Notes: generated by a model from the letters alone, not told the origin. A DNA stretch of 64,000 nucleotides from a virus (IMGVR_UViG_3300029122_000292); one strand, 5' to 3'. Counted from the stretch's first letter, positions 28,864 through 48,198 are shown. Numbers and translations: made by a program.

Positions 28864-29112
28864 GCTATCTACTTTCCTCCATTGTCCTTGGGACTGACAG
28901 CCGGGAAAGACCGGCATATATCCGGGTGTAGCGAAGCTGGTATCGCGCCAAATTTGGGATTTGGAGATTTCGCCCGTTCAAGTCGGGTCACTCGGACCAT
29001 GGTGCAGGGTCTTTCCTTTCTACCTGTGCCTATTGTGTGTATAAAACGGTTTCCATTAGACGAAACCGCGTGGCTGAAAATGCCGAGCAGGTACGATAAT
29101 CCTGCCTTATAT

Positions 29113-29499
29113 GGGCCCGAAAGGTTTTCGACAGGGCTATGAAAATTCACAATTCGCAGGTCGGCCATCACCTTACGAGGCAAAAAACAATAAACGCTAA
29201 CTACAATAGTTATCGCTGCGCGGCTTGATGCCGTGCCCAAAACAGCATCCTGATAGGCAGGTAAATGTTTGATGGTTCAAAGAATAAATCCCGGAACCCG
29301 ATGTAAACGGTAATAAACACCGGCGTTCTCGGACGCTAAAACCGAGTGGTGGAGTGATGTAACAAACCGTTACGTCCCTGGGTTTGCTGTGTTGGCGGCA
29401 TGAATTCCTTTCAAAAATTCTAAATGCTAACTATTGCGTAAGAAGATTGTGTACGAGTAATAGTTCTGGACGTGGGTTCGAATCCCACCGGGTCCACCA
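29113..29499 (+). ncRNA. ssrA: tmRNA (ssrA); putative tag peptide (A)NYNSYRCAA
   Basis: 5' GGGCCCG pairs with 3' CGGGTCC-A-CCA giving a G3-U70 wobble (AlaRS identity element); T-arm GGGTTCGAATCCC; internal reading frame starting GCT and ending GCG GCT TGA. Confidence 0.75.
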
Positions 29500-29862
29500 G
29501 TGGCGCAAGCCGCAAAGCTAGGTTCGATGCGACAGCGTAGTGTAGTGCGAGGTCGCTGGGGTGGCGCAATTCCACCGTGGATGCAATGCATTCATAACGC
29601 TTTGACCGAAATTGTGCGAACAGACTGCGACGGGGTAGCTCCTCGTGGAGTGAGGGTCTGGTGACAACATGAGTAGGCGATAGGATGACCTGCGAAAGTG
29701 GTCTAGTCAGTTTGGTGCCCGGACTGGCGGAGAGTGGATTTAAAAGGGCAGCCTTTGAGGATGGACTCTGGGGAAGACAAAATGTACCTAGTTGTATCTG
29801 CTGACGCGGTTAAGTCGCATTGCACATCGCCGATGCTGTTACATGGTTAAATCCTCCTCTCT

Positions 29863-29938
29863 GTGGCGTTAGTTCAGTTGGCAGAACACTTGGCTCATAA
29901 CCGAGTAGTCGTGGGTTCAAAGCCCTCACGCCGCACCA
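29863..29938 (+). tRNA. tRNA-Met (anticodon CAT)
   Basis: Manual fold: acceptor GTGGCGT/ACGCCGC, D-stem GTTC/GAAC, anticodon loop CTCATAA, T-loop TTCAAAG, encoded CCA. Confidence 0.75.
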
Positions 29939-29981
29939 TTTCGTGTACGAATATCAACAAATCAAAAAGAGGTAAATCAAA

Positions 29982-30245
29982 ATGGCTGAGAATGCAGCTA
30001 AAAATACCGAAAGATATCAATCCTATAAACTTCAATGGATGTTGGATCATGGACACACATTAGAGGAAATTTTTAGAGAACTCTACATGATTCAAAAGGA
30101 ATACTTGGAAGACGGAGAGTCATGCCCAAGCATTTGGACGTTGTTGGATCGATGGGAAAAGGATATTGGGTTTGGTGGAGAATGTTGGGCTTGCTTTGAT
30201 GAATGGCTGGAGAATGAAGGTAGAGAGGTAAATCAAAATGGCTGA
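29982..30245 (+). CDS. hypothetical protein (87 aa)
   Basis: ORF track; GAGGTAAATCAAAATG. Confidence 0.5.
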   Translation: MAENAAKNTERYQSYKLQWMLDHGHTLEEIFRELYMIQKEYLEDGESCPSIWTLLDRWEKDIGFGGECWACFDEWLENEGREVNQNG

Positions 30246-30909
30246 CAAGTATCTCAGTATCATTACAAACTTCGGCTGCCACTATAGCTGCCCTGAGTGT
30301 ATTGTCCGCAATAACAAGCTCAAGATGACACCGACAGACGAGTATTCTTCTTATATGCAGTTAGAGCATGTTCTGAAGAACGAATGTAATGACTGTAATT
30401 GGGTATCTGTGTCTGGCGGCGGTGATCCACTTTATCACTGGTGGGAACATCAGGCGTGGTGGACAGGATTCTTTTCGGTGTGTAAAGAACTTGGTCGCAA
30501 GATTGAGTTGCATACGAGCTATTATGATTTTGATCATGATGATGGAATTTTAATGTTTCCATTCGAACAGTTTGATAGAGTTGTGTATCATTTGCATTGT
30601 GCAGAGGAGCTTTATAAGATTTGTCGCCGGGGTAAAGAAATCGTTCGAGTGGTATTCGTTGTGGACGATTCTATGGACGAATACGAAGTTAGCAGGATTT
30701 CAGCTATTGTTCAAGAAAGCGACGATATCGACGAGCTTACATTCCGGCAACGCGTGGATGCAAACTATAAGCCGACCTATCATTTGCGCGGTCTCCTGCT
30801 GGCGGGGCATAAAAAGGCTTGGTGGTATGTGACACAGTGCGATTACAATACTTACTTCCACAACGGTAAACTGTACACGAAGTACACGGATATCTTTGAG
30901 AAGGAGTAA
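30238..30909 (+). CDS. small radical-SAM protein (CX3CX2C; QueE- or activase-like size)
   Basis: CHYSCPEC motif near the N-terminus; glycine-rich SVSGGGDPL segment. Confidence 0.55.
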   Translation: MADKYLSIITNFGCHYSCPECIVRNNKLKMTPTDEYSSYMQLEHVLKNECNDCNWVSVSGGGDPLYHWWEHQAWWTGFFSVCKELGRKIELHTSYYDFDHDDGILMFPFEQFDRVVYHLHCAEELYKICRRGKEIVRVVFVVDDSMDEYEVSRISAIVQESDDIDELTFRQRVDANYKPTYHLRGLLLAGHKKAWWYVTQCDYNTYFHNGKLYTKYTDIFEKE

Positions 30910-30914
30910 TTCAG

Positions 30915-31223
30915 ATGTACATTGTCGTAAGCGATTATACCAACGAAAAAGTTGACATCTACAAATCAGTAAGTTTCGATAAAGCATTTCAGGCGAGAAG
31001 CGATGCGATTGATTTTGCTGCCCGTAGCTATCAGAGCTTCTTTGACAATATGCCCAGCGATGAAGCTGCACGGTATGAAAACGCAACGCGAATTAACACT
31101 GACTCTTATGCGGATTTCTGTGGGTGTGCTTTGTGTCCGTATCCCGAGTATGCTATCGGAGCTGCGGTTGATAATGGTGAAGATAATCACATGTACTACA
31201 TGGTATTTAAGGTGGAGGAGTGA
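30915..31223 (+). CDS. hypothetical protein (102 aa)
   Basis: ORF track. Confidence 0.5.
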   Translation: MYIVVSDYTNEKVDIYKSVSFDKAFQARSDAIDFAARSYQSFFDNMPSDEAARYENATRINTDSYADFCGCALCPYPEYAIGAAVDNGEDNHMYYMVFKVEE

Positions 31224-31315
31224 TTTCATGAAGCGATACCTTGTAAGCGTTTGGATACGACAGTCTTATTCCATTTGTGGCAAAAAGCTGAGACCGGATT
31301 CTGAGGTAGTAAGTT

Positions 31316-31540
31316 ATGAAAAAACATAAAGATTTATTGCTGGCAGCCTGCGCATCGGCTGTTTCGTTTTTGAGTCTCGATGATGTTTTTGAGAAACTTC
31401 TACGGCACATCTCGCTTGTTCAAATGGCAACAGGAAACATAAGTTCTCTTTACGGACGTGTCAGCGAGTTGGCTCTTTCGGTATCTGTGGCTCTGTCGCT
31501 TGCGATTGGAGCTGTGGTATATATTTTATTCAAAAATTAA
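31316..31540 (+). CDS. small membrane protein (74 aa)
   Basis: Hydrophobic N- and C-terminal segments. Confidence 0.45.
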   Translation: MKKHKDLLLAACASAVSFLSLDDVFEKLLRHISLVQMATGNISSLYGRVSELALSVSVALSLAIGAVVYILFKN

Positions 31541-31552
31541 AAGGAGGAACGA

Positions 31553-32464
31553 ATGAAGAAGTTCAAAAAGATTTTCGTGGTTTCGTGTGCAATCGTGATG
31601 GCGTTGACCTTTACGGGGTGTACCAAGAAAGAGGTGTATACAATCGAACCTCATGAAACTGCATTTCTGATTTCACTCTCTGAGGGCGGTGGGAAACAGG
31701 CGTCCTTTGAGAGTGAGGCAATGCTCGCTGAAGCAAAGGTGGCAGCCAAACAGGTGTACATTACTTACTCGAAGCGACATCTGTCGCCGACTGACATCAT
31801 TGGTACTTGGGTACCGGATAACATGTTGGTTGTCGTCAATAGAACTCCTGTTACTCGTGAATGGTCCGAGGGCAAGGACAGTGGCACCAGCACTGTCAAC
31901 CAGTCCATCTCTGCCGAAAGCAAGGAGTCTATTGGCTTCTCTGTCGGTATGAACTGCTCTGCTCAGATCTACACTGAAAACGATGCAGTCAAGTTCCTGT
32001 ATTCCTACAACAACAAACAGCTCTCCGAGATTATGGATACTGAAATCCGTGCTCGTGTTGAAGCTGACTTTGTTGAAATGTGCGCCAAGTACACCATGAA
32101 TGAGATCCTTGAGAAGAAGGCCGAGATCATGGAGTATGTCCGCAAGGATGTGACTGAGTATTTTGCAGAACGCGGTATCACGATTACTGTCCTTGGTATG
32201 AAGGATGGCATTGAGTACGACGATGCGTCTGTTCAGGCTGCTATTAACAAGTCCTTTGTGGCTGAGCGCAATGATGAGGCGCAGGAGATTGAGAATCAGA
32301 CTAAGATTTCCAAGGCGAACGCAGAAGCCGAGGCGAATAAAATCATCTCTGAGTCTCTGACTGACCGGCTGATTCAGCAGCAGATGTATGAAAAGTGGGA
32401 TGGTAAGCTTCCTACTTATGTCGGCGGCGATGCCAGCATTCCTGTACTGAACGATATGAAGTAA
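31553..32464 (+). CDS. SPFH (band-7/prohibitin-like) domain lipoprotein (303 aa)
   Basis: Lipobox LTFTGC; Ala/Glu-rich coiled C-terminus typical of the SPFH family; GC3-rich. Confidence 0.6.
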   Translation: MKKFKKIFVVSCAIVMALTFTGCTKKEVYTIEPHETAFLISLSEGGGKQASFESEAMLAEAKVAAKQVYITYSKRHLSPTDIIGTWVPDNMLVVVNRTPVTREWSEGKDSGTSTVNQSISAESKESIGFSVGMNCSAQIYTENDAVKFLYSYNNKQLSEIMDTEIRARVEADFVEMCAKYTMNEILEKKAEIMEYVRKDVTEYFAERGITITVLGMKDGIEYDDASVQAAINKSFVAERNDEAQEIENQTKISKANAEAEANKIISESLTDRLIQQQMYEKWDGKLPTYVGGDASIPVLNDMK

Positions 32465-32553
32465 CCTCGTAGGAACGGAGACATTAAACCCGTGTCCTGA
32501 GATCAACACAAGATCTAAAAACTGTGTGGCAGCTCGGAAAGACGAGCAAGTAT

Positions 32554-32636
32554 GTTTCGGTGCTGGAATCGGCAGACAGGGGAGTCTCAAAAACTTCTGC
32601 GAAAGCATGTGGGTTCAAGTCCCATCCGAAACGCCA
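32554..32636 (+). tRNA. tRNA-Leu (anticodon CAA), type II
   Basis: Acceptor GTTTCGG/CCGAAAC, anticodon loop CTCAAAA, long variable arm, T-loop TTCAAGT, CCA. Confidence 0.7.
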
Positions 32637-32759
32637 TGGGTGAGTTGCGTCGCCCAAAAATCTCCTTTTCCTCACAAATGCTTAGTGGCTCATGAGTTCC
32701 AGACATGAATCACCGTGACTGAACAAGTCGTAGCAGGTACGCAATCCTGTTTTTGATAA

Positions 32760-32845
32760 GTCGGTATGGTGGAATAGGCGAGACACGTCTGCTTTAGGGA
32801 CAGATGCTTAAGTGCATGTGAGTTCAAATCTCACTACCGACACCA
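32760..32845 (+). tRNA. tRNA-Leu (anticodon TAG), type II
   Basis: Acceptor GTCGGTA/TACCGAC, anticodon loop TTTAGGG, variable arm ATGCTTAAGTGCAT, T-arm GTGAG-TTCAAAT-CTCAC, CCA. Confidence 0.6.
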
Positions 32846-32995
32846 ATCTCGCATGGGTAGGATCTTTAGCGGTCAGATCCGGCCGCGCCTGTGCGAGATA
32901 CCACCCCCCTGTGGGGAATGTTAAATTTTTCCATGTACGTTATTCTCGGCTCGCTCGAAAGAGTGCAGCGTGCCTTTGTAAGCCGAGTATTTTAT

Positions 32996-33064
32996 GTGGC
33001 TGTAGCTCAGATGGTAGAGCAGCAAGCTAACTGCGCGCCGTTGGTTCAAGTCCAACCAGTCACT
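32996..33064 (+). tRNA. tRNA-like gene; anticodon arm not resolved by eye
   Basis: Acceptor GTGGCTG/CAGTCAC, D-arm GCTC-AGATGGTA-GAGC, T-arm GTTGG-TTCAAGT-CCAAC. Region between the arms is too short for a standard anticodon arm plus variable loop. Confidence 0.4.
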
Positions 33065-33183
33065 CCGATGCCCGCTTATAGGGTCTCATTCCTCCTATTC
33101 GGGCTTTACCTCTTTTCTTCCTTGTTATTCCCGGCTCCATGGCGAATGCTGTGGCAATAAGGCGTAGTAAGCTGGGTTTATAT

Positions 33184-33258
33184 GCAGCGGTCGTACATCG
33201 GCTAGTATATCAGCCTTCCAAGCTGAGGAGGTGGGTTCGACTCCCATTCGCTGCTCCA
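33184..33258 (+). tRNA. tRNA-Gly (anticodon TCC)
   Basis: Acceptor GCAGCGG/TCGCTGC, anticodon stem TCAGC/GCTGA, loop CTTCCAA, T-loop TTCGACT, CCA. Confidence 0.7.
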
Positions 33259-33566
33259 TCGTGTGCGACGGTTTGAGACTCCTACATGCAAATCCAGCCG
33301 GGTAAGTCCGTCCACAACCGGTGTAGGTAGACATCTTTACTCATTAGGTCTCTAACTAAATGAGGAATAGAAAATCAGTTGTTCCAGCTAGATCGGGGAT
33401 TGGCCGTTCATTGGCAAACGACAGGCATCACACCGGTAAATGATGCTGAGCCAAATAGGAAGGGGAATAAGGTGCAAGTCGAGTAGCTGTCGGACGAATA
33501 CTCTTCAGGTAGCCAGTAAACTGGAACGTAAAACGAATGTTGGCTGTTTCTGATTTTCTTTTATAT

Positions 33567-33653
33567 GCTACCATGATGTAACTGGCAGGCATGAGGGACT
33601 TAAAATCCCTTGCTGGAAACAGCGTGCGGGTTCAAGTCCCGCTGGTAGCACCA
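33567..33653 (+). tRNA. tRNA-Leu (anticodon TAA), type II
   Basis: Acceptor GCTACCA/TGGTAGC, anticodon stem AGGGA/TCCCT, loop CTTAAAA, long variable arm, T-arm GCGGG-TTCAAGT-CCCGC, CCA. Confidence 0.75.
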
Positions 33654-34616: not shown

Positions 34617-34874
34617 GTGAAGGTTTATGTTCTTTATGACTGTGTCGAAAATCCAGACGAGTGGGCGTTTGCTGGTGTTGAACACATTTATGCGAATCAT
34701 GCAGACGCGGTAGATCGGATGCAGGATTTGTTCTTAGAGTGTTTGAACGAACACGACATAAATAATGCAGAAAGTATGCGAGATAGCTATATTGACGATT
34801 GGGGAGCGCGTGTCGCGGACGTTCCGGCTGGTTATCGTCACACATGGACAATTACAGAGGAGACAGTTGTATGA
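34617..34874 (+). CDS. hypothetical protein (85 aa)
   Basis: ORF track. Confidence 0.45.
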   Translation: MKVYVLYDCVENPDEWAFAGVEHIYANHADAVDRMQDLFLECLNEHDINNAESMRDSYIDDWGARVADVPAGYRHTWTITEETVV

Positions 34875-35095
34875 AATACGATTTACATGTTGGGCAATTA
34901 GTTAGAATCGGCAATGAAGTGTCTGAAAACGATATGAATCGCAACAAAAGAGGGCGCATCGTAAGATTTGATAAAGATTACCCAGTTGTAGAGATGTTAG
35001 ACCCATTTACAAGTGGAGAAACAACGATTACTTGGTGCCCGCAGAGATTTTGGGAGCCGTGTCCAACAAAACTTACTTGCAAATCACTTCTGTGA
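34872..35095 (+). CDS. 74-aa SH3/KOW-like small protein with C-terminal ...TCKSLL tail
   Basis: ORF 34799..35095 trimmed to MKYDLHVGQLVRI. Paralog of 41540, 42637, 42926 and 45562. Confidence 0.55.
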
Positions 35096-35273: not shown

Positions 35274-35332
35274 GGTACAACGGGTGATTGCCCGTTTACA
35301 TATCAATCTTTAATTACAAAGGAGAAAACATT

Positions 35333-35755
35333 ATGAAAGCAATCGTTAAGTTCAACAATCTGTTCGTCACTTCCGCATACGATGTCGCTACCCTGAAGAA
35401 GGTCGAGAAGTTCCGTCCCGAGGCTTTGAAGCTGTATGAGGGCGAGGGCAAGGAGAAGAAGCTTGTGAGCGCCATTGCTGTTGCTTCTAAGGATGATATT
35501 AGCAAGTTCGGCGTGGCTTTTGCTCAGGATGCAGTCACTGGCGATAAGGTTGCCGTTTTGAGCCGTCCTGTTCCTGCTGGTATGAAGTCTGAGGCAGAGA
35601 TCAAGGAGTGGGTTCGCGACATGATTGGTCTGACCATTGTTCGCGGCACCAAGATCGAGGAGCAGATCGCAGCCGCTATGGAGTCCATCAATGCTGATGA
35701 GGCTGCCATGAATGCTGCAATCACTATCGATGGTGAGGACGCAGACGCCGAGTAA
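35333..35755 (+). CDS. hypothetical protein (141 aa), GC3-rich; probably abundant
   Basis: ORF 35288..35755 trimmed to MKAIVKF after AAAGGAGAAAACATT. Confidence 0.6.
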   Translation: MKAIVKFNNLFVTSAYDVATLKKVEKFRPEALKLYEGEGKEKKLVSAIAVASKDDISKFGVAFAQDAVTGDKVAVLSRPVPAGMKSEAEIKEWVRDMIGLTIVRGTKIEEQIAAAMESINADEAAMNAAITIDGEDADAE

Positions 35756-35852: not shown

Positions 35853-36092
35853 ATGATTAAGATTTGGGTTACCACTAATGACGACAAGATCGAGGACGTT
35901 GTTGCTACCAGCATGACCCCGAAGGACGTGTTCGCAAAGCATGGCGTGAACTACGCCAATGGCCAGAGCACTCTGGATGGCTGCATTCTGACGGTGGCAC
36001 AGCTGAACACTCCGCTGTCTGAGCTGGGCGTCGGCGATGAGGTGTATCTGGCCTCCATCTCCAAGCACGACAATGCGACTGGTATGAACTGA
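35853..36092 (+). CDS. 79-aa protein with possible MoaD/ThiS-like beta-grasp (ubiquitin-like) fold
   Basis: MIKIWV... N-terminus and GDEVYLASISKHDNATG near the C-terminus resemble MoaD (MIKVLFF... GDEVAFFPPVTGG). No terminal GG unless processed. Confidence 0.35.
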   Translation: MIKIWVTTNDDKIEDVVATSMTPKDVFAKHGVNYANGQSTLDGCILTVAQLNTPLSELGVGDEVYLASISKHDNATGMN

Positions 36093-36235
36093 TCGCGCTG
36101 ATCCGAAAATAAACAACTGAATTCGTTATTGGTTACAACGATATTCTAAACACTGCAGCCGCTGGCAGGCCGGTTAAAGTCTGCCTTATATGTGTCCAGT
36201 ATCTGGGCTTTTAAATTAAACAGGAGGAAATACAT

Positions 36236-37753
36236 ATGGCTTTCACAGCTTATTCCAGCAAGATCGGTTCGAGAGATTGCGACGAAGCATATCCGTTGAT
36301 TCTGAATTGCGACAATAGCAATCTCAACGATAATGTGATGTTGTCTGTACTGCGCGTACTGATCAATGATGACCGTATCAAGCATTCTATTTCGGGAGGG
36401 CATCGCATTCAGTCAATTATTGATTGCCAACAGTTCTATATGGGCGACGACGAAAAGTTCACTAAGGACATGTTCGTTCATGAAGATAACGCTTTCAATC
36501 AGATGAAATTTGGCATCATGTTTCAGACGATCGACGATAAGAAAGCAGACGCCATTATTTCTGAGTTCAAGAAGTACAATGCGGATTACGAAGCTGCCGG
36601 TTGGAAGATCATGGATGTCGCAGCTAAGTACATCGATAAGAATGGCAACGTCTATGTATATCAGAATGAAAAGAAGCAGGGTGTTGTCGTTGTTTGTGCT
36701 AAGAAGAATCTGATTCAGGCCATGCACATGGCGGCGAGTTGTTTGCCAAACCTGATGCCGTGGTTTTTCGCTGATCAGCCGCTGACTGATGATGAGAAGG
36801 CGATGCTGCGTACTCTTTATGATCAGGACAACGAAGCTTTCGGCAAATACATGGAGAAGGCATACGAGACCGGCGATTTCTATGGTAAGAAGTTGCGTGG
36901 CGCTCTGAAGGGATTTTGCAAGAAGGATTATGCAAACGAAATTACCCGGCAGGAGCGATATATTCGTGAAATCCAAGATGAAATCGAAAGAAAATATAAC
37001 GATATCCGTGAGAGAAATAAAAATCTTGAAGAAGCTCAATTTAAACTCACTATGATCATGGACCGTGCTTGCTGCACTGAGGATGACGAAGCTGCAATTG
37101 TTAATTTCCTGAAGCGCTGCAAGACGCTGGTTTATCTTGACTCCAATAGTGATCGAATCTCTATTGGTTATGTTGGCACGCTAAACGATTGTGATGAGGG
37201 CGAGTTCCGCACTTGTGTTGAGAAAAAGGCAAATAGTCGAAGCTACATTTTTCAGCGTTCGCCGTATGACACGGAACTTACGAAAGATTTCTTTGTGTCA
37301 ATTTGGAAGACCCATCGGTTCGCTATTCGCACCTACTGTGAATGGCGACTGTATTCCAGCTGCAAGGTTGAAGCAATTCGTGGTTCTGATATGCAAGGTC
37401 GCTCTGATTTGATGAAGGATCGTATTCGTCAGCCCCATATCGATCGGCATGCGTGCTATAGCGGTTATCGAGAGATGCTCAATGCGCTTAGTGTAAAACA
37501 CGATTACATTGGCGTCCTGACTACGATTATTGGTTCAAGCGCATCTATCAACTGGAAGGATGGCACCGTTGTAAGCGACCTCATGTACGATTTGTTTGAC
37601 GAATACTATATCAAAACTCGTAAGTGTATCGAGGATAACGCGGGTAATCTGTACACGGTGGCAGAAGTATTTGATATTCTCAAGAACGAAAAGGACGCAG
37701 CAGCAACAGCAGAAGCAGTAAAGAAGGAGGTCGCTAAAGATGAAGCCCATTAA
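36236..37753 (+). CDS. hypothetical protein (505 aa)
   Basis: ORF track; GGAGGAAATACATATG. Confidence 0.6.
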   Translation: MAFTAYSSKIGSRDCDEAYPLILNCDNSNLNDNVMLSVLRVLINDDRIKHSISGGHRIQSIIDCQQFYMGDDEKFTKDMFVHEDNAFNQMKFGIMFQTIDDKKADAIISEFKKYNADYEAAGWKIMDVAAKYIDKNGNVYVYQNEKKQGVVVVCAKKNLIQAMHMAASCLPNLMPWFFADQPLTDDEKAMLRTLYDQDNEAFGKYMEKAYETGDFYGKKLRGALKGFCKKDYANEITRQERYIREIQDEIERKYNDIRERNKNLEEAQFKLTMIMDRACCTEDDEAAIVNFLKRCKTLVYLDSNSDRISIGYVGTLNDCDEGEFRTCVEKKANSRSYIFQRSPYDTELTKDFFVSIWKTHRFAIRTYCEWRLYSSCKVEAIRGSDMQGRSDLMKDRIRQPHIDRHACYSGYREMLNALSVKHDYIGVLTTIIGSSASINWKDGTVVSDLMYDLFDEYYIKTRKCIEDNAGNLYTVAEVFDILKNEKDAAATAEAVKKEVAKDEAH

Positions 37754-38636
37754 TATCACGGAGCAGGTTGTAGCAGATATGGCACGTGAATTTGTTCAGG
37801 AGCTGTATAAGACCGGTAGGGTTAAGACGGATTCTTTCTCATACAAGAAGAATTTTGCGTCTGTTAAAAAGGATGCTGTCGAGGTGAATTTCACCTATGA
37901 AGCGTATTCTCAGATGTTTGCGTTGATTGATCACTTCGATTGTGAGGTTGCATGGCGCGGCATTGTGAATCGTATCGATAAGACGCATTTTCAGATTACC
38001 AAGATTCTGCTGTATCCTCAGACTGTGACTGGTACCACAGTGGACACCGATCAGGAAGAATTTTCAAAGTGGTTTCAGGCGCTGCCTGTTGAAACGATTC
38101 GCAACCTGAGATTTCAGGGACACAGCCATGTCGATTTCGGTGTAACGCCGAGCAGTCGCGATATGGAGGATCAGTGGCGATTCATTGACGGACTCAAGCC
38201 GACGAGTTATCAGATTTTTATGATTTGGAACAAGAAGCGTCAGTATAACGTTCGCGTCATTGATCTGGCCGACAATGTCATCTATGAGGGAGCCGATGTC
38301 AAGGTTACTGTTGGAGATTTTGACTCGACTCGATTTCTCGAGGATGCAGACAAAACGGTTCGAAAGCGCCCTGTATATGTCGCAAGCACAGTCGCAAATT
38401 ACGGAGCTTATGGAGCAGGCACCTATTATGGTAAAGCAGTTACGCCGCAAAAAACGTACCCGCAAACAGTTACCACGCAAACGCCAGTGCCGCAAATCAA
38501 GACGGTAACTGGCGCAGCGGCTCCGAAAGTCAAGGAAGTGTCTGAGACTCGATATCCATTGGTCAATCATTACAAGGAGAATCCAGAAGATCTTGATACG
38601 TGCTGGAATTCCAGCTGTTTTCCGTATGACAATTAA
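37740..38636 (+). CDS. JAMM/MPN+ family metallopeptidase (298 aa)
   Basis: Canonical JAMM motif HSHVDFGVTPSSRD (HxHx7Sx2D) with upstream Glu. Confidence 0.65.
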   Translation: MKPINITEQVVADMAREFVQELYKTGRVKTDSFSYKKNFASVKKDAVEVNFTYEAYSQMFALIDHFDCEVAWRGIVNRIDKTHFQITKILLYPQTVTGTTVDTDQEEFSKWFQALPVETIRNLRFQGHSHVDFGVTPSSRDMEDQWRFIDGLKPTSYQIFMIWNKKRQYNVRVIDLADNVIYEGADVKVTVGDFDSTRFLEDADKTVRKRPVYVASTVANYGAYGAGTYYGKAVTPQKTYPQTVTTQTPVPQIKTVTGAAAPKVKEVSETRYPLVNHYKENPEDLDTCWNSSCFPYDN

Positions 38637-38651
38637 AGAAAGGACTACAAA

Positions 38652-39326
38652 ATGAATCTGAGTAAGCTTGAAATGGTATTCAACCCCGATGATATCAGCG
38701 GCCAGATCCACATTATTGGTTGTGGTTCGGTTGGCTCTACTGTGGCGGAACTTCTTGCACGGTATGGTCTGAAGAATTTCACGCTGTGGGATATGGACGA
38801 GGTTGAAAGCAAGAATATCGTCAACCAGATGTTCTTCGCCAACAATATTGAAGCTCCAAAGGTCGAGGCGGTTCGCGATATTATCTGTGCCATCAATCCT
38901 GATGCCAAAGATGAAATTGTTCTGAAGCCGAATGGTTGGCAGGGTGAGATGATTCGCGGTTATGTATTCCTCGCGGTCGACAATATCGAAATTCGCAAGC
39001 AATTCATGGAGGCGAACAAGTACAATCCGAATATCAAGGGTGTGTTTGATGTCCGCACCGGGTTCCATGATGCACAGTGCTGGGCAGCAGATTGGAGTAA
39101 GGAAAAAGACCGAGAGAATTTATGGAACTCTATGAATTTCTCTCATGAAGATGCACAGGCTGGCACTCCGGTTTCTGCATGTGGCATCGTTCAAGGTCTC
39201 GCCCCGACTGTTCGTTTCGTGTGTTGTTTGGCGGTTACGAACTTTATCAATTTCGCGACTAATATCGCACCTTTGAAGAAAATGATCGTTGCAAATCCGT
39301 ACACTTTTAACGTTACGGCTGCATAA
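38652..39326 (+). CDS. ThiF/MoeB-family E1-like adenylyltransferase (224 aa)
   Basis: Rossmann motif IIGCGSVGSTVAELLARYGL followed by LWDMDEVESKNIVNQ, as in the E1/MoeB/ThiF nucleotide-binding site. Confidence 0.65.
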   Translation: MNLSKLEMVFNPDDISGQIHIIGCGSVGSTVAELLARYGLKNFTLWDMDEVESKNIVNQMFFANNIEAPKVEAVRDIICAINPDAKDEIVLKPNGWQGEMIRGYVFLAVDNIEIRKQFMEANKYNPNIKGVFDVRTGFHDAQCWAADWSKEKDRENLWNSMNFSHEDAQAGTPVSACGIVQGLAPTVRFVCCLAVTNFINFATNIAPLKKMIVANPYTFNVTAA

Positions 39327-39375
39327 AGAATAAATAAAAAAAAATCGTGATGAATTACTGTTGAAATATACAGTC

Positions 39376-39393
39376 CTGCCGGATGACCGACAG
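39376..39393. promoter_or_regulatory. 18-bp imperfect palindrome CTGCCGGATGACCGACAG, copy B, at the head of the 290-nt leader upstream of the RT
   Basis: Identical at 18/18 to copy C and 17/18 to copy A. Confidence 0.5.
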
Positions 39394-39620
39394 GTTCGTA
39401 AAGGTAAGATCATATACATCCCACCGGGAAACCGAGGCGTGTGATCGCATGCGATGTACGTCGGCTCCGCAGGTATGCTGATTCGCTGATCGAAATAATC
39501 AACGTAGACACGTGCCGGCAATGAGCTCAAAACGCAAACCCGCAGGAAGACGTCCCGTCGAAGGCACCTCCCTGAGCATACAAACCACCATTTAGATCAC
39601 GATTTAGAAGAGGTAAACAT
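39394..39620 (+). ncRNA. candidate structured ncRNA / RT-associated RNA in the non-coding region upstream of the RT
   Basis: About 230 nt with no ORF; contains the perfect 12-nt palindrome ATCGCATGCGAT and several GC hairpins. Identity as msr/msd-like RNA is inference only. Confidence 0.3.
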
Positions 39621-40856
39621 ATGTACGTTACTTATTGGAATCCGCCGAGAACAAGGCAGATTACGTTTGATGAAATCCTTAGTGGAGTCGTTGACGTGAA
39701 CCAGTTGAAATATGCTGGCGATGAAACTTCTACTCGAACTGTACAGCGTAATGGGTTGAATGATCGTCTCGTAGCAATTACAAACGTTACCAATATGATT
39801 GCACGGCTCGCGGAATTCAATCAGAAATACGCTCGTCTTGAAGCAGTACGTGACCTGTCGACGTATTACTATCACTTTGAAATTCCCAAGAAGACTGGTG
39901 GCGTTCGTCCAATTGATGCACCGAACAATGAACTGAGCGATGCGTTGGTTGAGTTGCGGACGCTGTTAAAAAGTTTCATGATTGCTGATTATCACACGGC
40001 AGCACACGCATATATCAATGGGCGCGGCACTCTGAGTGCAATTAAAAAGCATCAGGCGGGACACAGATATACAGTAAAAGATCGTGAGACTGGGAAAGAA
40101 AAGATCGTCACCTATGAAAACAACTGGGCTGTCAAGTTTGACTTTCATGGATTCTTCCCGAGCTCCACTCCTGAGTTTATCTACAGTATGTTCAGAAAGA
40201 TTTATCCGTTTTCTCTCATTATGAAGGATCGAAATGGATACAATCAGCTGACTAAAGCGATGCGCCTGTGCTTCTTGAACGGCGGTCTTCCGCAGGGAAC
40301 GCCAATCAGTCCGTGGATCACGAACGTTATGATGATCCCGTTTGATTATATGTTAAACAAGAAGCTTTCTTACAAATATACCATGAAAGACGGCATTTCT
40401 CGCACTTTTACATACACCAGATATGCAGACGATATCACCATCAGCTGCTATTTGAGTTTTGACCCGATGGAAATGCAGGATATTATCAAAGAGACGTTGG
40501 ACGCAATCAATGCTCCGTTTACTTTGAATGAAGAAAAAACGCATTATGGTAATCGGCATTCGAGCGAAAACTGGATGCTCGGTCTGATGTGGAACGCCAA
40601 TAACGATATCACAGTCGGATGGCGCAATTTTAAGGACTTCAAGAAGATGGCATCTAATTACATCATCTGCAAGAAAGAAGGGAAAACGTGGGACCTTGAA
40701 GACTTGCAGCAGTTTAATGGCAGGCTGAATTACTACCGTATGGTAGAAAAAGAATCGGTTGACACGGTGATTTCTCGGTACAACGAAAAGTATCGTGTTG
40801 ATATGATGGCAATGCTCAAAGCTGACTTAAAACCAAAAGAAGGAGTTGTTTTCTAA
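39621..40856 (+). CDS. reverse transcriptase, retron/group-II-like clade (411 aa)
   Basis: RT motifs IPKKTGGVRPI, FDFHGFFPS, GLPQGTPISP, YTRYADDITIS; N-terminal similarity to retron RTs. Confidence 0.85.
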   Translation: MYVTYWNPPRTRQITFDEILSGVVDVNQLKYAGDETSTRTVQRNGLNDRLVAITNVTNMIARLAEFNQKYARLEAVRDLSTYYYHFEIPKKTGGVRPIDAPNNELSDALVELRTLLKSFMIADYHTAAHAYINGRGTLSAIKKHQAGHRYTVKDRETGKEKIVTYENNWAVKFDFHGFFPSSTPEFIYSMFRKIYPFSLIMKDRNGYNQLTKAMRLCFLNGGLPQGTPISPWITNVMMIPFDYMLNKKLSYKYTMKDGISRTFTYTRYADDITISCYLSFDPMEMQDIIKETLDAINAPFTLNEEKTHYGNRHSSENWMLGLMWNANNDITVGWRNFKDFKKMASNYIICKKEGKTWDLEDLQQFNGRLNYYRMVEKESVDTVISRYNEKYRVDMMAMLKADLKPKEGVVF

Positions 40857-41194
40857 TGATTGAAATGATGTGTAGAGATGGCGGCACTCCAGTTGAATTG
40901 CTCGATCAAGCGGCAAGTGTCGTAGAGGAATCCATTGGGTGTCCAGTTGACCTGTTGGATATCGACGACCACAGAGCAATGGTCTATTGGGGGCCGTCTG
41001 ATGTTGCAAGCGCAATCAAGGAGCTTGGCATCAAAGAAATCGATGCAGAGGATATGAGCTTATGTGCAGATCTCTTGTGCGATTTTGAAGTGAATATTCA
41101 TCAGGCAATGCTTGAGGCCGGACACGACGCTCTACAGAGCTGTTTGGAATGTCTTGTTGATGAACTGCGAAAACAGGACAAAGAATCCAAGTAA
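40856..41194 (+). CDS. small acidic protein translationally coupled to the RT (112 aa)
   Basis: ATGA overlap with RT stop. Confidence 0.55.
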   Translation: MIEMMCRDGGTPVELLDQAASVVEESIGCPVDLLDIDDHRAMVYWGPSDVASAIKELGIKEIDAEDMSLCADLLCDFEVNIHQAMLEAGHDALQSCLECLVDELRKQDKESK

Positions 41195-41241
41195 TTATAT
41201 ATTGTAATCTCTTTTGAATATCGGGCGTTTTACGTCGCGAG

Positions 41242-41259
41242 CTGCCGGATGACCGACAG
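41242..41259. promoter_or_regulatory. 18-bp imperfect palindrome CTGCCGGATGACCGACAG, copy C
   Basis: Followed by about 280 nt of hairpin-rich non-coding sequence (for example GCTGCCTGAGTTGGCAGC). Confidence 0.5.
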
Positions 41260-41539: not shown

Positions 41540-41803
41540 ATGGATTACAAATATAAAATTGGACAAAAAGTACGAATTCGGAAAGACTTGACAGCTGGTG
41601 CAGAATATCCAATGCAGAGCGGAGAAAGCTATGGTTGCAATCCGGGAGTTAATGAAGATATGGAAAGATACCGTGGTCAACTTATGACAATCGATCGCCA
41701 AACATACGGTGTTTATACGCTCTGTGAGGACAACGAATATTGGAGTTGGACTGACACGATGTTTGAGTCTCCAAAACCACTTACATGTAAAAGTCTTTTG
41801 TAA
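41540..41803 (+). CDS. 87-aa SH3/KOW-like small protein with C-terminal ...TCKSLL tail
   Basis: ORF 41426..41803 trimmed to MDYKYKIGQKVRIRKDL. Confidence 0.55.
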   Translation: MDYKYKIGQKVRIRKDLTAGAEYPMQSGESYGCNPGVNEDMERYRGQLMTIDRQTYGVYTLCEDNEYWSWTDTMFESPKPLTCKSLL

Positions 41804-41817
41804 AGGAGTGAATTTTA

Positions 41818-42633
41818 ATGGCAGAAACCGCAAAGAAAGTGGCACAAAAAACCATTCTTTTCCCAGTTGAAGATCAGCCTGCAAAACTCGTCGTTACAGA
41901 GGACGATATTGAACGAATTATTCAGCAGGCAGTTAAAAGTGCCACTGCAACGAAAAAAGCACGGAAACCTCGTCGGACGGACAGTCTTTATCTCAAGGAT
42001 GGGCGTAGAAAGCCAACCCCGGCAGATCCTATCAAGTCAAAGGAAGATTTTAAGAAAATTGTTGATTATCTTGGATCAAATGGCACTGAAGAAATTGCGC
42101 TCAGGAACAAAACACTATTCATTCTCGGCTGTTCAATTGGTGTTCGATGCGGCGATTTGTTGAAGCTTAAAACGGCTGATGTTTATTATGAGAACGCTCA
42201 TGTAAAAGATCATGTTGAGCTGATCGAACAGAAGACCGGCAAGCGAAACGTGTGTAAGATTTCTCATATGGCAAAAGAAGCTTTAAGAGAATATTATCAG
42301 GCAATTAGTTTTCGAATTGACCGCGACACGCTTCTTTTTCAGAGCAAGAAAGGTGGACAGCTTAACGTTAGATCAGTGAGCAACCTTTTGAAGAAGGCTG
42401 GTAAGGCGTGTGGTTTGAATATTGAGTTATCTACTCACACTATGCGTAAAACTTATGCTATGGCCGCGTTACAGAGTGCAGAAGGTACAGTTGATGAAGC
42501 GAACATCGTGAGTATTCTGCAAAACAAATTTAACCACAGTAATCAGCGTATTACGATGAGATATATCAAAATGGATCAAGAAAAACTTGATGAAGTCTCT
42601 GAGAATGTTTCCGACTGGTTTGAAGGAGAATAA
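41818..42633 (+). CDS. tyrosine recombinase / phage-integrase-family catalytic domain protein (271 aa)
   Basis: Arg I (GVRCGDLLKL), HxxR (THTMRKTYA) and catalytic Tyr (ITMRYIKMD). Confidence 0.7.
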   Translation: MAETAKKVAQKTILFPVEDQPAKLVVTEDDIERIIQQAVKSATATKKARKPRRTDSLYLKDGRRKPTPADPIKSKEDFKKIVDYLGSNGTEEIALRNKTLFILGCSIGVRCGDLLKLKTADVYYENAHVKDHVELIEQKTGKRNVCKISHMAKEALREYYQAISFRIDRDTLLFQSKKGGQLNVRSVSNLLKKAGKACGLNIELSTHTMRKTYAMAALQSAEGTVDEANIVSILQNKFNHSNQRITMRYIKMDQEKLDEVSENVSDWFEGE

Positions 42634-42636
42634 GCT

Positions 42637-42909
42637 ATGAATTATAGATTTAAACCCGGTGACAAAGTGACCGTTAGAAAAGATTTGGCGACATATGAAA
42701 CGTATCATATGTTATCTGGAGAAACCCCATGTGATGCCATTATTGCTACTTATTCTATGGAAAATCTTCGAGGGAAACAAGTCACAATCGAGAACTATGA
42801 TTGTTGTGGGAGTGCAATGTGTTACAGGGTAAAAGAAAGCTCCAGATATTGGGCAGATGAAATGTTTGAAGAGTCTAAAAAGCCGTTTACGTGTAAAAGT
42901 CTATTATGA
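42637..42909 (+). CDS. 90-aa SH3/KOW-like small protein with C-terminal ...TCKSLL tail
   Basis: ORF track; KPGDKVTVRKDL...WADEMFE. Confidence 0.6.
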   Translation: MNYRFKPGDKVTVRKDLATYETYHMLSGETPCDAIIATYSMENLRGKQVTIENYDCCGSAMCYRVKESSRYWADEMFEESKKPFTCKSLL

Positions 42910-42925: not shown

Positions 42926-43210
42926 GTGTCGAAAAGCAAGTACAAATATAAGAATGGAGAAGCAATTCGCGTCAGGGAAGATCTTCAATCTGGAACAGTT
43001 TATTACATGAGATCTGGTCCAGAACCGGATGCCAATGGTATTGAGACGTCATGGAGTGGACGTGGACAAGTAGGTTATCGTGGACAAATTGTACATATTT
43101 CTCACAAAGCAAACGGTCGATACAAAATTCTTGAAGACGGAAAAACATATTATTATACGGATGAAATGTTCGATCGTCCAAAGAACTTGATTTGCAAAAG
43201 TTTGTTGTGA
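42926..43210 (+). CDS. 94-aa small protein with C-terminal ...ICKSLL tail
   Basis: ORF track; GTG start after AGAGG. Confidence 0.55.
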   Translation: MSKSKYKYKNGEAIRVREDLQSGTVYYMRSGPEPDANGIETSWSGRGQVGYRGQIVHISHKANGRYKILEDGKTYYYTDEMFDRPKNLICKSLL

Positions 43211-43489: not shown

Positions 43490-45562
43490 ATGTCTGATTT
43501 CAAGAAATTTCGTGCACTGCTGCAGAACCACTTCAATGAGATGGTGAAGGGTGAGAATCCACTGTTTATCACCGATGCAGACGAGGATGAACTGTACAAT
43601 CTGTATCTTGATAGTTTCCCGGCCGGCACAAATGAGCTGTTCCGTAAGCGGCGCGAGTATGACTGTTCCTGCTGCCGCCGTTTTGTGAAGAATATCGGCA
43701 AGCTGGTGGCGTTTGACAAGAATTATAATTTGATTTCCATCTGGGATTTCGATGCAAAGTCTGCCAAGTATCAGCCTGTTGTTGATACGCTGGCTGCCTA
43801 TGTAAAGAGCCGCGCCATTGTGAATCCGTACTTTGTCAGTCGCAATATGATCGGTTCTGGGAATATGTTCGGCACCGAGATGAACTACGAGTATGATGAA
43901 AACCACAATGATGTATATACTTGGGATCATTTCGCAGTCAAGATTCCGCAGCGTTTTATTACCAGTGGAGATGACGTGGCTACCAAGATGGCACAGTGGC
44001 GTGACTCCGCAAACGTGTTCAAGCGTTCTCTGGAAGAGCTAACCATGGAGGCTGTTGATACTGTGCTGGAGCTGATTGCTCAGAATAGTCTGTATCGCGG
44101 CAAGGAGTTTGAGCGATCTGTAAAGGAGTTTAAGCACGATAAGATTGACTATGACAAACTGTCTGTTAATGAAAAGCTTGCCTTTGTATGGCTTGCCCCT
44201 ACGTATGCTACGGCGGCGCAGCTTCGTATTCGTAACACCGCTATCGGCACCCTTCTTATCAATTTGAGCGAAGGTATGAACGTGGATGCAGCCGTTACTG
44301 CCTTCGAGAAAGTTGTTGCTCCCGCAAACTATAAGCGTCCCAAGGCGATTTTCACCAAGAAGATGTTGGAAGATGCACAGAAGACTGTCACCGAGCTGGG
44401 CTATATGAGCAGTCTGGGTCGTCGGTTTGCTACTCTGGATGATATCACCGCCAACAATATCTTGTTCTGCAACCGTGATGCTGCTTCTCGTATTGCTGGT
44501 GCTACAAATCCGTTTGAAGCAATGGCTAAGACTGTTGCGATTGATCCCAAGAAGTTTAACCGTGCAGAAGAAATTGGCATCGACAAGTTTATCAAAGACG
44601 TGCTGCCGACTGCAACTGGTTTGGAACTGTTCATGGAAAATCGTTTCGAGAAGAATATGATGTCTCTGATTGCACCGCAGGATAAGACTGCGCCGAGCAT
44701 GTTCAAGTGGCCGAATGGTTTCAGCTGGGCATATACCGGTAATGTGACTGACAGTCAGATCCGCGAGAACGTCAAGAACGCTGGTGGCAAAGTCGATGGC
44801 GTGCTGCGTTTCTCTATTCAGTGGAACGATAAGCCGGGTGAATGGGATGAAAACGATCTCGATGCCCACTGTGTTGAACCGAATGGCTTTGAGATCTATT
44901 ACGGCGACAAACGAGATTTGCGTACCGGTGGTAATCTGGACGTGGATATCATTCATCCTAATTGTAATAAGGCGGCTGTTGAGAACATCACTTGGTCTGA
45001 CATCAAGAAGATGAAGGATGGCGAGTATAACTTTTCTGTTCATTGCTTCTCTAACCGTGGCGGCAAAACCGGCTTCCGCGCAGAGATTGAATTTGATGGT
45101 CAAATCTACTCCTTTAATTATAATATTCCGCTGCGTCAGACTCAGATTGTTTCTGTTGCTACTGTTGTGTTGAAGGATGGGCAGTTTACTATTAAGGAAC
45201 ATCTCAATAGTTCTACTTCTTCCCGTGAGATCTGGGGTGTGAATTCCAATCAGTTCGTACCTGTGTCTGTGGCGATGTACTCTCCGAACTACTGGGATGA
45301 GCAGACTGGCAATGGCAACCGTCACTACTTCTTCATGCTCAAGGATTGCGTCAACCCTGAAAAGCCCAATGGTTTCTACAACGAATTCCTGAAGGCGGAA
45401 CTGCTACAGCATAAGCGTGTGTTCGAGGCTCTCGGTTCTCAGATGGCGGTTCAATCGGTGGATGACCAGCTGTCTGGTGTTGGCTTCTCTGAGACGAAGC
45501 ACGACTCCCTCATTGTCAAGGTGCAAGGCGCTACTGAGCGAGTTCTGAAAGTGGTGATTTAA
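43490..45562 (+). CDS. hypothetical protein (690 aa), GC3-rich
   Basis: ORF track; AAGGAGAATAATAACAATG; no recognisable motifs. Confidence 0.7.
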   Translation: MSDFKKFRALLQNHFNEMVKGENPLFITDADEDELYNLYLDSFPAGTNELFRKRREYDCSCCRRFVKNIGKLVAFDKNYNLISIWDFDAKSAKYQPVVDTLAAYVKSRAIVNPYFVSRNMIGSGNMFGTEMNYEYDENHNDVYTWDHFAVKIPQRFITSGDDVATKMAQWRDSANVFKRSLEELTMEAVDTVLELIAQNSLYRGKEFERSVKEFKHDKIDYDKLSVNEKLAFVWLAPTYATAAQLRIRNTAIGTLLINLSEGMNVDAAVTAFEKVVAPANYKRPKAIFTKKMLEDAQKTVTELGYMSSLGRRFATLDDITANNILFCNRDAASRIAGATNPFEAMAKTVAIDPKKFNRAEEIGIDKFIKDVLPTATGLELFMENRFEKNMMSLIAPQDKTAPSMFKWPNGFSWAYTGNVTDSQIRENVKNAGGKVDGVLRFSIQWNDKPGEWDENDLDAHCVEPNGFEIYYGDKRDLRTGGNLDVDIIHPNCNKAAVENITWSDIKKMKDGEYNFSVHCFSNRGGKTGFRAEIEFDGQIYSFNYNIPLRQTQIVSVATVVLKDGQFTIKEHLNSSTSSREIWGVNSNQFVPVSVAMYSPNYWDEQTGNGNRHYFFMLKDCVNPEKPNGFYNEFLKAELLQHKRVFEALGSQMAVQSVDDQLSGVGFSETKHDSLIVKVQGATERVLKVVI

Positions 45563-45834
45563 TGGCTCGTTACAAAGTCGGAGACAAGGTACGCTTAATC
45601 GATAATTTTGTGCAATACGAAGAGTATCATATGCGAGATCGGAATAACAATCCCGGATATACTATAACAGTCAAGTGGTCATTAGAAGAAAGAATGAAAC
45701 TTGCTGGAAAAATTGTGACGATTGCTGAAGTTGGAGAATACTACCGAATCGAAGAAGACAACCATAGTAAACATTGGACTGATGATATGTTTGTTGGCAC
45801 GGCAAAATGTCTTGTTTGTCGGTCGTTACTGTAA
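45562..45834 (+). CDS. 90-aa SH3/KOW-like small protein with C-terminal ...VCRSLL tail
   Basis: ORF track; ATGG overlap with upstream stop. Confidence 0.6.
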   Translation: MARYKVGDKVRLIDNFVQYEEYHMRDRNNNPGYTITVKWSLEERMKLAGKIVTIAEVGEYYRIEEDNHSKHWTDDMFVGTAKCLVCRSLL

Positions 45835-47370: not shown

Positions 47371-48198
47371 ATGGTCAAAGCAAATTATTATGAAATCAGT
47401 TCTTTCCCTGATGGCACTCCGCTGATTAAGAAGGATAAAGCTATCAATTATCTCAATGCGATCAATATCGTTTGGACGTTTGAATCCATGGCAGAGCTCC
47501 CCACAGTCATTATGATCGCAAAGGACGCAAAGGATAACGGGGCAGAAGTCGAGCTGTTTATGCCGTATATTCCGAACGCTCGTATGGATCGCGTTCATAG
47601 TGACGAGGATGTGTTTACTCTCAAGTGGTTCGCAGAGGAGATCAATCGATGTGGGTTCAGCTGCGTCAACGTGTTCGATCCCCACAGTGATGTGGCTCCC
47701 GCATTGATCAATCGTTGCGAGGTACATACTCCGATTCGTGAAATCTGTCAGGCAATCGAGGAAAGCAAGCCTGATGTGGTCTATTTCCCAGATGCCGGCG
47801 CAATGAAACGGTACGAAGGAACTGTTCACTGGGCACTCGATCGTGTCGGTTGTAAGGCTTATATCATTCACGGAGACAAGAAGCGTGACTGGAAGACCGG
47901 AAAGATTCTCGGCTTGGATGTCACCGGTTATCCTCCAAAGGGTGGCAAGGTTCTGATGATTGACGATATTTGTTCTTACGGTGGCACTATGTTCTATTCG
48001 GCCAAGAAGCTGAAGGAACTGGGTGCTGGTGATATCGATATGTATATCAGCCACTGCGAGAACAGTATTCTGGATTCTGAGCGCGGCCATCTGTTTGATA
48101 ACCCGGATCTGATTCATATGGTCTATACCACGGACAGTATCTTCACTGGCCATCACGACAAGGTCACTGTATTAGAGCATCATTGGGATGAGGACTGA
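47371..48198 (+). CDS. prs: ribose-phosphate pyrophosphokinase (PRPP synthetase) family; either Prs or the Prs-like ADPR-PP synthetase (Adps) of phage NAD+ reconstitution pathways
   Basis: Type-I PRTase/PRPP-binding loop KVLMIDDICSYGGTM; size and layout of Prs. Confidence 0.7.
   Translation: MVKANYYEISSFPDGTPLIKKDKAINYLNAINIVWTFESMAELPTVIMIAKDAKDNGAEVELFMPYIPNARMDRVHSDEDVFTLKWFAEEINRCGFSCVNVFDPHSDVAPALINRCEVHTPIREICQAIEESKPDVVYFPDAGAMKRYEGTVHWALDRVGCKAYIIHGDKKRDWKTGKILGLDVTGYPPKGGKVLMIDDICSYGGTMFYSAKKLKELGAGDIDMYISHCENSILDSERGHLFDNPDLIHMVYTTDSIFTGHHDKVTVLEHHWDED

Follow-up and report, generated by a model that had tools for sequence, protein, structure and literature searches.

What would a bacteriophage do with a set of ubiquitin-type genes, and is their position beside a retron-type reverse transcriptase (RT) more than chance? 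Both questions are raised by a 64,000-nt stretch of viral DNA (IMGVR_UViG_3300029122_000292), hereafter called the window. A reading of its sequence alone had pointed to a 79-amino-acid (aa) ubiquitin-like protein (Ubl), a JAMM peptidase and a minimal E1-like adenylyltransferase, with a 505-aa protein between the first two, all adjoining a retron-like RT and a putative non-coding RNA (ncRNA); every open reading frame named in this sequence-only reading was recovered at the same coordinates on the plus strand. Studies of bacterial Ubl conjugation have so far treated it as a weapon of the host, directed at phages, as in Bil and in the type II cyclic oligonucleotide-based antiphage signalling system (CBASS), and here it is the virus side that carries a complete-looking Ubl set. 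We propose, at a probability of roughly 55%, that the locus is a phage-encoded Ubl conjugation cassette genetically coupled to a retron-type RT and its ncRNA. The gene set reaches beyond the region originally singled out and includes an upstream gene for a 140-aa partner protein, p155.

Conservation of the module

Loci were collected from viral contigs, metagenomes and metagenome-assembled genomes through relatives of the JAMM protein and, separately, through the RT. All complete JAMM-anchored loci encode p155, the Ubl, the 505-aa protein (p505), JAMM and E1 in that order, and an RT follows the cassette in 85 of 90 distinct loci; conversely, wherever an RT-anchored locus included enough upstream DNA, the five-gene cassette was found there (75/75). 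The window has the same arrangement with the ncRNA between E1 and RT, and the layout is operon-like, with genes that abut or overlap. Neighbour clustering returned only six recurrent families, all of them members of the module, while the flanks turn over, and the linkage holds down to 33–40% protein identity. The recurrent neighbours include no thi, moa or cys genes, no rhodanese and no CD-NTase; a Ubl partner is encoded in all relatives, and in the loci collected the JAMM protein never occurs without its own Ubl, E1 and p505. The RT and ncRNA are a conserved part of the module and not a chance neighbour, and p155 belongs to the gene set as well.

The cassette is present in hundreds of phage contigs from gut, rumen and termite gut, and most of the bins in which they turn up are those of Clostridia from the guts of humans, ruminants, horses and termites. 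The loci all belong to a single broad group of gut phages, and shared descent could in principle explain the linkage: the Ubl cassette and the retron would then be independent accessory systems, adjacent only through inherited gene order. The five loci that have no RT within ~6 kb of the cassette are in keeping with this, as are clades in which unrelated genes separate E1 from RT, with gaps of up to 1.9 kb. Against such independence stand an RT clade that was found only downstream of the cassette, in all 75 informative loci, and six genes that stay together at great sequence distance while the flanking genes turn over. We consider it unlikely, although it is the alternative that survives best.

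The retron-type reverse transcriptase and its non-coding RNA

The RT matches Pfam RVT_1 (1.5e-13); its best NCBIfam model is retron St85 (3.5e-43; 148 bits, under the cut-off of 235), and its best PADLOC models are those of retron RTs, RT_II-A among them at 2.1e-37. The gap between E1 and RT measures 294 nt, opens with AAATCGTGAT-G and closes with ATCACGATTT. These ends form a terminal inverted repeat (39342–39351 and 39596–39605), in which the G after the 5' arm is conserved and is followed by two stem-loops. Across nine aligned relatives both ends and the two 5' stem-loops are kept, the middle is variable, and 10 of the 14 stem pairs show compensatory changes. The arm sequence itself depends on the clade, ATCGTGAT being replaced by CTGTAAC, CTGTAAT or CTGCAAT, which amounts to covariation of the whole stem. 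In 117 of 146 distinct loci a terminal inverted repeat of 8 nt or more stands in the right place, compared with 25 of 145 coding controls.

The support for the RNA is comparative: folded as a single sequence, the intergenic RNA is no better than its shuffles (z = −1.3). No Rfam family matches it, and a scan for promoters and terminators stayed at chance level. Because the best RT profiles are retron models and the RNA has conserved ends and covarying stems, RT and ncRNA are classed, from their sequences, as retron-like and outside every curated family; the adjacency noticed in the sequence-only reading holds.

The ubiquitin-like protein and its C-terminus

The 79-aa protein had been read as a beta-grasp carrier. 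A word-indexed homologue search found two near-identical sequences only, an exhaustive search 72 representative clusters, and direct searches of Pfam, PHROG, NCBIfam and PADLOC gave nothing significant. The AlphaFold model built from the exhaustive-search alignment is a confident beta-grasp with a floppy tail (predicted local distance difference test, pLDDT, 85.4). The family profile has its best PDB sequence match in SAMP2, taken from the SAMP2–JAMM1 complex (E=5e-4), and the best fold match is BilA, a conjugating Ubl, so that predicted structure, profile and fold comparison all uphold the original reading.

It had also been argued that a carrier lacking Gly-Gly would have to be processed. 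The precursor forms in the family agree with this, and the site they indicate is Ala75, not the Gly of the tail. The conserved family end is K71-x-D-N74-A75 (K71-H-D-N-A75 in the window), beyond which the window protein carries the tail TGMN; the Gly in this ...NATGMN ending is not conserved in the family. Among 95 distinct Ubl sequences, 39 (~40%) stop exactly at ...DNA, 14 add R, 8 add A and others extend by 2–4 residues, while Gly variants are rare, with DGG followed by RQ in two sequences. Six of the 95 run straight from DNA into a p155 domain (Ubl–p155 fusions are found in L092, L094, P0143, P0144 and P0178), and P0136 and P0137 contain head-to-tail tandem Ubls. A conserved end that is variously free, capped or fused is the pattern of ubiquitin and of JAMM-matured prokaryotic Ubls, from which we infer cleavage after Ala75 by the adjacent JAMM protein. 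The mature C-terminus is most likely Ala75, with TGMN removed, and the tails, tandems and fusions would be the forms expected of a trimmed precursor.

The JAMM peptidase

Although the window JAMM protein has no Pfam match, the motif recognized in its sequence stands up well. E69...H128-S-H130-x7-S138-xx-D141 is 100% conserved in 52 sequences less than 70% mutually identical, and none of the 335 detectable relatives departs from E69, H128-S-H130, S138 and D141. The family profile finds its best PDB match in Rpn11 (E=0.012) with the catalytic residues aligned, 10 of 25 family members weakly match the Pfam family Prok-JAB, and PADLOC returns a weak, sub-threshold match to a CBASS-type JAB (0.0034). 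The catalytic domain covers approximately residues 45–200 and is followed by a variable low-complexity tail. The motif is far beyond chance, and the metal site is predicted to be intact.

The minimal E1, p505 and p155

The ThiF/MoeB signature of the 224-aa E1-like protein is confirmed by Pfam ThiF (E=7.4e-21; 74.8 bits against a cut-off of 28.1; residues 18–218), whereas every NCBIfam family, including ThiF and MoeB, scores the protein far below its cut-off. GCGSVG, D47, D49, N55, K70, D110, R115, R135 and Cys177 (SAC177G) are invariant in 17–20 diverse relatives. The question of cysteine and zinc motifs, raised by the sequence-only reading, has a clear answer: Cys177 is invariant and there are no CxxC zinc motifs, nor is there a rhodanese domain or a fused E2. 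Searched against the PDB, the family profile scores Uba1, UBA5 and UBA6 best (1e-16 to 1e-17), with MoeB, ThiF and Cap2 at ~1e-11, these matches covering the first 90 residues only. In PADLOC the Cap2-type E1–E2 models are best (1.6e-15), over only ~70 residues of the Rossmann fold. The protein is predicted to be a minimal ThiF/E1 adenylation domain with Cys177 as its putative catalytic cysteine.

For p505, previously an unknown between Ubl and JAMM, the position stands and the label probably does not, as the protein is likely to be an E2-like component. Its AlphaFold2 model, built from 14 sequences (pLDDT 84.6), has two alpha/beta domains and a 48-residue helix. Among 51 relatives less than 70% mutually identical, and only ~20% identical to the window protein, the sole invariant residues are His401 and Cys407, within the motif P-N-P-H-[IL]-[DQ]-x3-C-[LMI]-G. 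The predicted secondary structure around them, namely a helix, strands, a loop with PH, the Cys and then three helices, fits a UBC domain. Fold matches include many RWD and E2 structures, BilB and Cap2 among them; they are moderate, and they are more numerous and higher-scoring than weak MogA-like matches. Direct searches of Pfam, PHROG, NCBIfam and PADLOC gave nothing significant, the one marginal hit being an unrelated PADLOC CARF_TM match (E=0.0032). Judged by its model, p505 is probably an E2-like carrier with a candidate UBC/RWD-fold C-terminal domain.

The listed TTG start of p155 at 35288 probably lies upstream of the real ATG at 35333. S14, F63 and E109 are invariant in the protein and K26 is conserved in 95% of sequences; direct searches of Pfam, PHROG, NCBIfam and PADLOC and a profile search of the PDB returned no match.

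The main rival to conjugation would employ the same proteins as a sulfur-carrier pathway, in which the JAMM-trimmed, E1-adenylated Ubl would become a thiocarboxylate and give its sulfur to a small molecule or a nucleic acid (such as a tRNA, phage DNA or the multicopy single-stranded DNA, msDNA, of the retron), with p155 as a MoaE-like partner and p505 as the synthase. A Ubl with JAMM and E1, tail trimming and no sequence-recognizable E2 is also what QbsE/QbsD/QbsC, CysO/Mec+/MoeZ and MoaD/MoeB present, and the pairs and fusions of a Ubl (~75 aa) with a partner (~135 aa) recall MoaD–MoaE, although p155 has no MoaE match and Ala takes the place of Gly-Gly at the end of the Ubl. Many tRNAs are encoded by the phage, but cysteine desulfurase, thi, moa and cys genes are not recurrent nearby, and the E1 lacks both a rhodanese domain and a Zn CxxC. 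The E1 profile places Uba1, UBA5 and UBA6 above MoeB and ThiF, the MogA-like fold matches of p505 are outnumbered and outscored by those of the RWD/E2 type, and the Ubl is closest in fold to BilA, which conjugates. Sulfur transfer is accordingly an improbable function for the set.

The sequence-only reading had left open whether the locus is a conjugation system or a counter-defence module, and of these the evidence favours conjugation. As a counter-defence deconjugase, JAMM would mimic Cap3 or BilC and strip host Ubl or CD-NTase conjugates, with the Ubl and E1 serving as decoys or competitors. Bil and CBASS conjugation is indeed reversed by JAMM enzymes, the Ubl resembles BilA in fold, and the module lies near genes for the salvage of nicotinamide adenine dinucleotide (NAD), a counter-defence function. 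A decoy, however, needs neither an invariant E1 catalytic set nor an invariant His/Cys pair in p505, and the Ubl precursor forms point to a self-processing role. Because JAMM is always accompanied by its own Ubl precursor, E1 and p505, a stand-alone Cap3-like deconjugase is highly improbable. Hardly credible is a peptide-nucleotide pathway of the ribosomally synthesized and post-translationally modified peptide type, in which E1, in the manner of MccB or PaaA, would turn the 79-aa protein into a modified peptide product through its C-terminal Asn-Ala: MccB (6e-13) and PaaA (9e-10) are among the E1 profile matches and the conserved penultimate Asn recalls MccA, but the substrate is a folded 75-residue beta-grasp and not a short leader/core peptide, the 224-aa E1 has no MccB N-terminal peptide clamp, and no export or immunity genes recur nearby.

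Genomic setting

The window comes from the genome of a large phage; its proteins match IMG/VR viral contigs of 134–150 kb at 97–99% protein identity. PHROG-typed phage genes surround the module and encode an exonuclease, PhoH, an ATPase, nicotinamide phosphoribosyltransferase, ribose-phosphate pyrophosphokinase and an integrase. The features of the locus are listed in Table 1.

Table 1. Features of the Ubl–RT locus in the window (positions counted from the first nucleotide)
Feature	Position	Strand	Remark
p155, 140-aa partner protein, candidate substrate or adaptor	35333..35755	+	in every complete locus
Ubl precursor, 79 aa, beta-grasp, predicted mature residues 1–75	35853..36092	+	
p505, 505 aa, two alpha/beta domains joined by long helix, candidate E2-like C-terminal domain	36236..37753	+	
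JAMM/MPN+ metallopeptidase, divergent, 298 aa	37740..38636	+	invariant motif
Minimal E1-like adenylyltransferase, ThiF family, 224 aa	38652..39326	+	Pfam ThiF
Retron-like ncRNA, candidate msr-msd	39340..39606	+	inverted repeats, covariation
Retron-type RT, 411 aa, YADD active site	39621..40856	+	profile matches
Acidic protein, 112 aa, start overlaps RT stop	40856..41194	+	window's own clade only

Whether the 112-aa acidic protein at the end of the locus is a module member is uncertain: homologues 40–54% identical follow the RT in the close clade and are absent from distant loci, and no family in Pfam, PHROG, NCBIfam or PADLOC matches it. Elsewhere, 15 of 51 diverse loci (for example L096 7953–8441, L106 7876–8427 and L121 7853–8422) have the gene of a very acidic protein of ~160–190 aa inserted between JAMM and E1, and 10 loci encode a DUF6273 protein in the interval from E1 to RT.

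Just downstream of the RT, a small tyrosine recombinase/integrase of 271 aa (41818–42633) hints at a temperate lifestyle or at the boundary of a mobile cassette. Farther on is the gene of a 690-aa protein (43490–45562; phrog_1735, E=4e-258; Pfam DUF8224 in relatives), which several relatives, L015 and L019 included, likewise carry a few kb downstream of their own module. Five paralogous small proteins of ~75–95 aa are scattered around the module (34871–35095, 41543–41803, 42637–42909, 42926–43210 and 45562–45834). All five share the invariant C-terminal tail C[KR]SLL and have no Pfam match; similar small paralogs in the distant relative L121 end in ...ELxxLLS instead. Further downstream, ribose-phosphate pyrophosphokinase (47371–48198) adjoins nicotinamide phosphoribosyltransferase (48696–50174) as an NAD-salvage pair. 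Phages use such pairs against NAD-depleting defences, and its presence suggests that the region is an accessory or counter-defence neighbourhood. Upstream, positions 28922–33653 hold six clustered tRNA genes (Pro, Met, three Leu and Gly) and a phage transfer-messenger RNA with the tag ANYNSYRCAA, and a 223-aa protein at 30238–30909 (phrog_17662) has a CxxxCxxC motif (FGCHYSCPEC) typical of radical S-adenosylmethionine enzymes.

Proposed mechanism

The family sequences show that the Ubl is made in precursor form, with a four-residue tail here and as a tandem or p155 fusion elsewhere. JAMM would cut after K-x-D-N-A and expose Ala75, as suggested by the C-terminus pattern and by analogy to the JAMM enzymes that process Ubls in SAMP, Qbs, Bil and CBASS systems. 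To judge by its family and conserved residues, E1 would then adenylate the Ala75 carboxylate, probably forming a thioester on Cys177, and the Ubl may be passed to Cys407 of p505, a step suggested by the moderate fold match and the invariant His/Cys pair. More speculatively, it would end up on a target lysine, which could belong to p155, to the RT–msDNA complex, or to proteins of the host or of rival phages. JAMM could in addition undo the conjugation. The RT, for its part, would act as in retrons and reverse-transcribe a portion of the neighbouring ncRNA into msDNA.

To our knowledge, all retrons and Ubl/E1/E2/JAB operons of established function serve in biological conflict. By analogy to them, and because the module sits in an accessory region with NAD-salvage genes, we think that the unit may act in phage–host or phage–phage conflict, in which the retron would sense or regulate and the Ubl cascade would be the effector arm. 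Retron and cascade might even form a single machine, in which RT–msDNA senses a cue from the host or a rival phage, or is itself modified, and licenses E1 and the E2-like protein to tag target proteins with the Ala-ended Ubl. This idea is a tentative one, to which we would give somewhat less than even odds; if true, the locus would add a further type to the retrons and be the first ubiquitination-like system encoded by a phage, with JAMM both maturing and recycling the Ubl. The almost constant tie to RT and ncRNA suggests that protein tagging and reverse-transcribed DNA are connected in a way for which we found no precedent.

Several observations weigh against a conjugation cassette coupled to a retron. 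The conserved Ubl end is Ala and not the glycine seen in Bil, and the E1 has Asn at the Arg position of the NxxRQ found in Uba1 and MoeB. The E2-like assignment of p505 meets the most resistance: a Foldseek search of the PDB with the model gave no significant match, profile searches of Pfam and PDB were empty, and the His-x5-Cys spacing and the PNPH sequence differ from the canonical HPN-x8-10-Cys. Alignment of either half with three E2 sequences (hhalign) was not significant, with probabilities below 1%; in the top register PNPH faces HPN and C407 falls close to the Cys of the E2, a placement that does not count as evidence. No target and no E3 were identified for the Ubl, and the activities of the cassette are predictions from computation alone. 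Coupling to the RT is not obligatory, as the five loci without one nearby show, and deep, apparently vertical conservation within one phage group is unusual for defence cargo. The proposed conjugation cassette lends itself to a direct test in vitro, for which five small recombinant proteins suffice.

Comparison with known systems

No description of a phage Ubl cassette with a retron RT was found in the literature, and a text search of selected Aravind/Corbett-type papers found mention of neither an RT-linked nor a phage Ubl system. In the phage GenBank set the sole homologue record is one unannotated uncultured contig, with none in cultured phages, so that the combination does seem to be undescribed, as had been supposed. 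Against the PADLOC defence library, the Ubl has no match, JAMM a weak and E1 a partial one, and the locus is assigned to no system.

Three established gene sets were tried and rejected. A housekeeping ThiF/MoeB is discounted by NCBIfam scores far below the cut-offs, the Ala end, the lack of CxxC and the lack of thi/moa/cys neighbours. The PRTRC system is discounted by a PRTRC_ThiF score of 18.8 bits against a cut-off of 144.75, and the other proteins match no PRTRC model. Membership in type II CBASS is discounted by the separate 224-aa E1 and by the lack of a CD-NTase among recurrent neighbours. By analogy, the cassette would resemble type II CBASS, which has Cap2 (an E2–E1 fusion) and Cap3 (a JAB), in that an E1 and a JAB act on a Gly or Ala at the C-terminus; unlike CBASS, it has a dedicated Ubl and neither CD-NTase nor E2–E1 fusion.

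The SAMP/TtuB systems of archaea and Thermus (a Ubl with UbaA/TtuC E1 and JAMM1/TtuD), QbsCDE and CysO/Mec+ consist of the same set of Ubl, E1 and trimming or deconjugating JAMM. Their Ubls end in Gly-Gly, their E1s have Zn motifs or rhodanese domains and their neighbours belong to sulfur metabolism, all of which is absent here, whereas the present cassette has an additional His/Cys protein with an E2/RWD-like predicted fold.

Close in composition are the ISG15-like Bil operons, a type I bacterial ubiquitination-like defence against phages (BilA Ubl, BilB E2, BilC JAB, BilD E1), with which the locus shares a stand-alone beta-grasp Ubl, a ThiF-family E1 with a conserved and predicted catalytic Cys, and a JAMM with an apparently intact metal site. 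Bil is bacterial. The present set is phage-encoded; its Ubl ends in KxDNA (Ala) instead of Gly, its E1 is a bare 224-aa adenylation domain, and the part of an E2 is putatively played by p505, which has two domains and PNPH-x5-C in place of HPN-x8-10-C. The partner p155 and the linked RT with its retron-like ncRNA come in addition.

With retrons such as type II-A (St85/Sen2) the locus shares an ncRNA directly upstream of the RT and tightly linked accessory genes. The RT itself scores best with retron profiles but below the curated cut-offs of the known families (148 against 235 bits for St85), and the ncRNA has the a1/a2 inverted repeats, the G after the 5' arm and the msr stem-loops that mark retron ncRNAs. 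The accessory genes here are a five-gene Ubl cassette placed upstream, and the host is a large phage genome; we know of no such upstream cassette in any of the 13 retron types of the published classification. The locus could reveal the purpose that Ubl tagging serves in phages, and it would enlarge the retron classification as well as the list of prokaryotic Ubl systems. Its parts are of known kinds, those of Bil-like Ubl operons and of retrons, and what is new is the phage location, the Ala-ended Ubl with its polyubiquitin-like and fusion precursors, the bare E1, the candidate carrier protein, p155 and the retron linkage.

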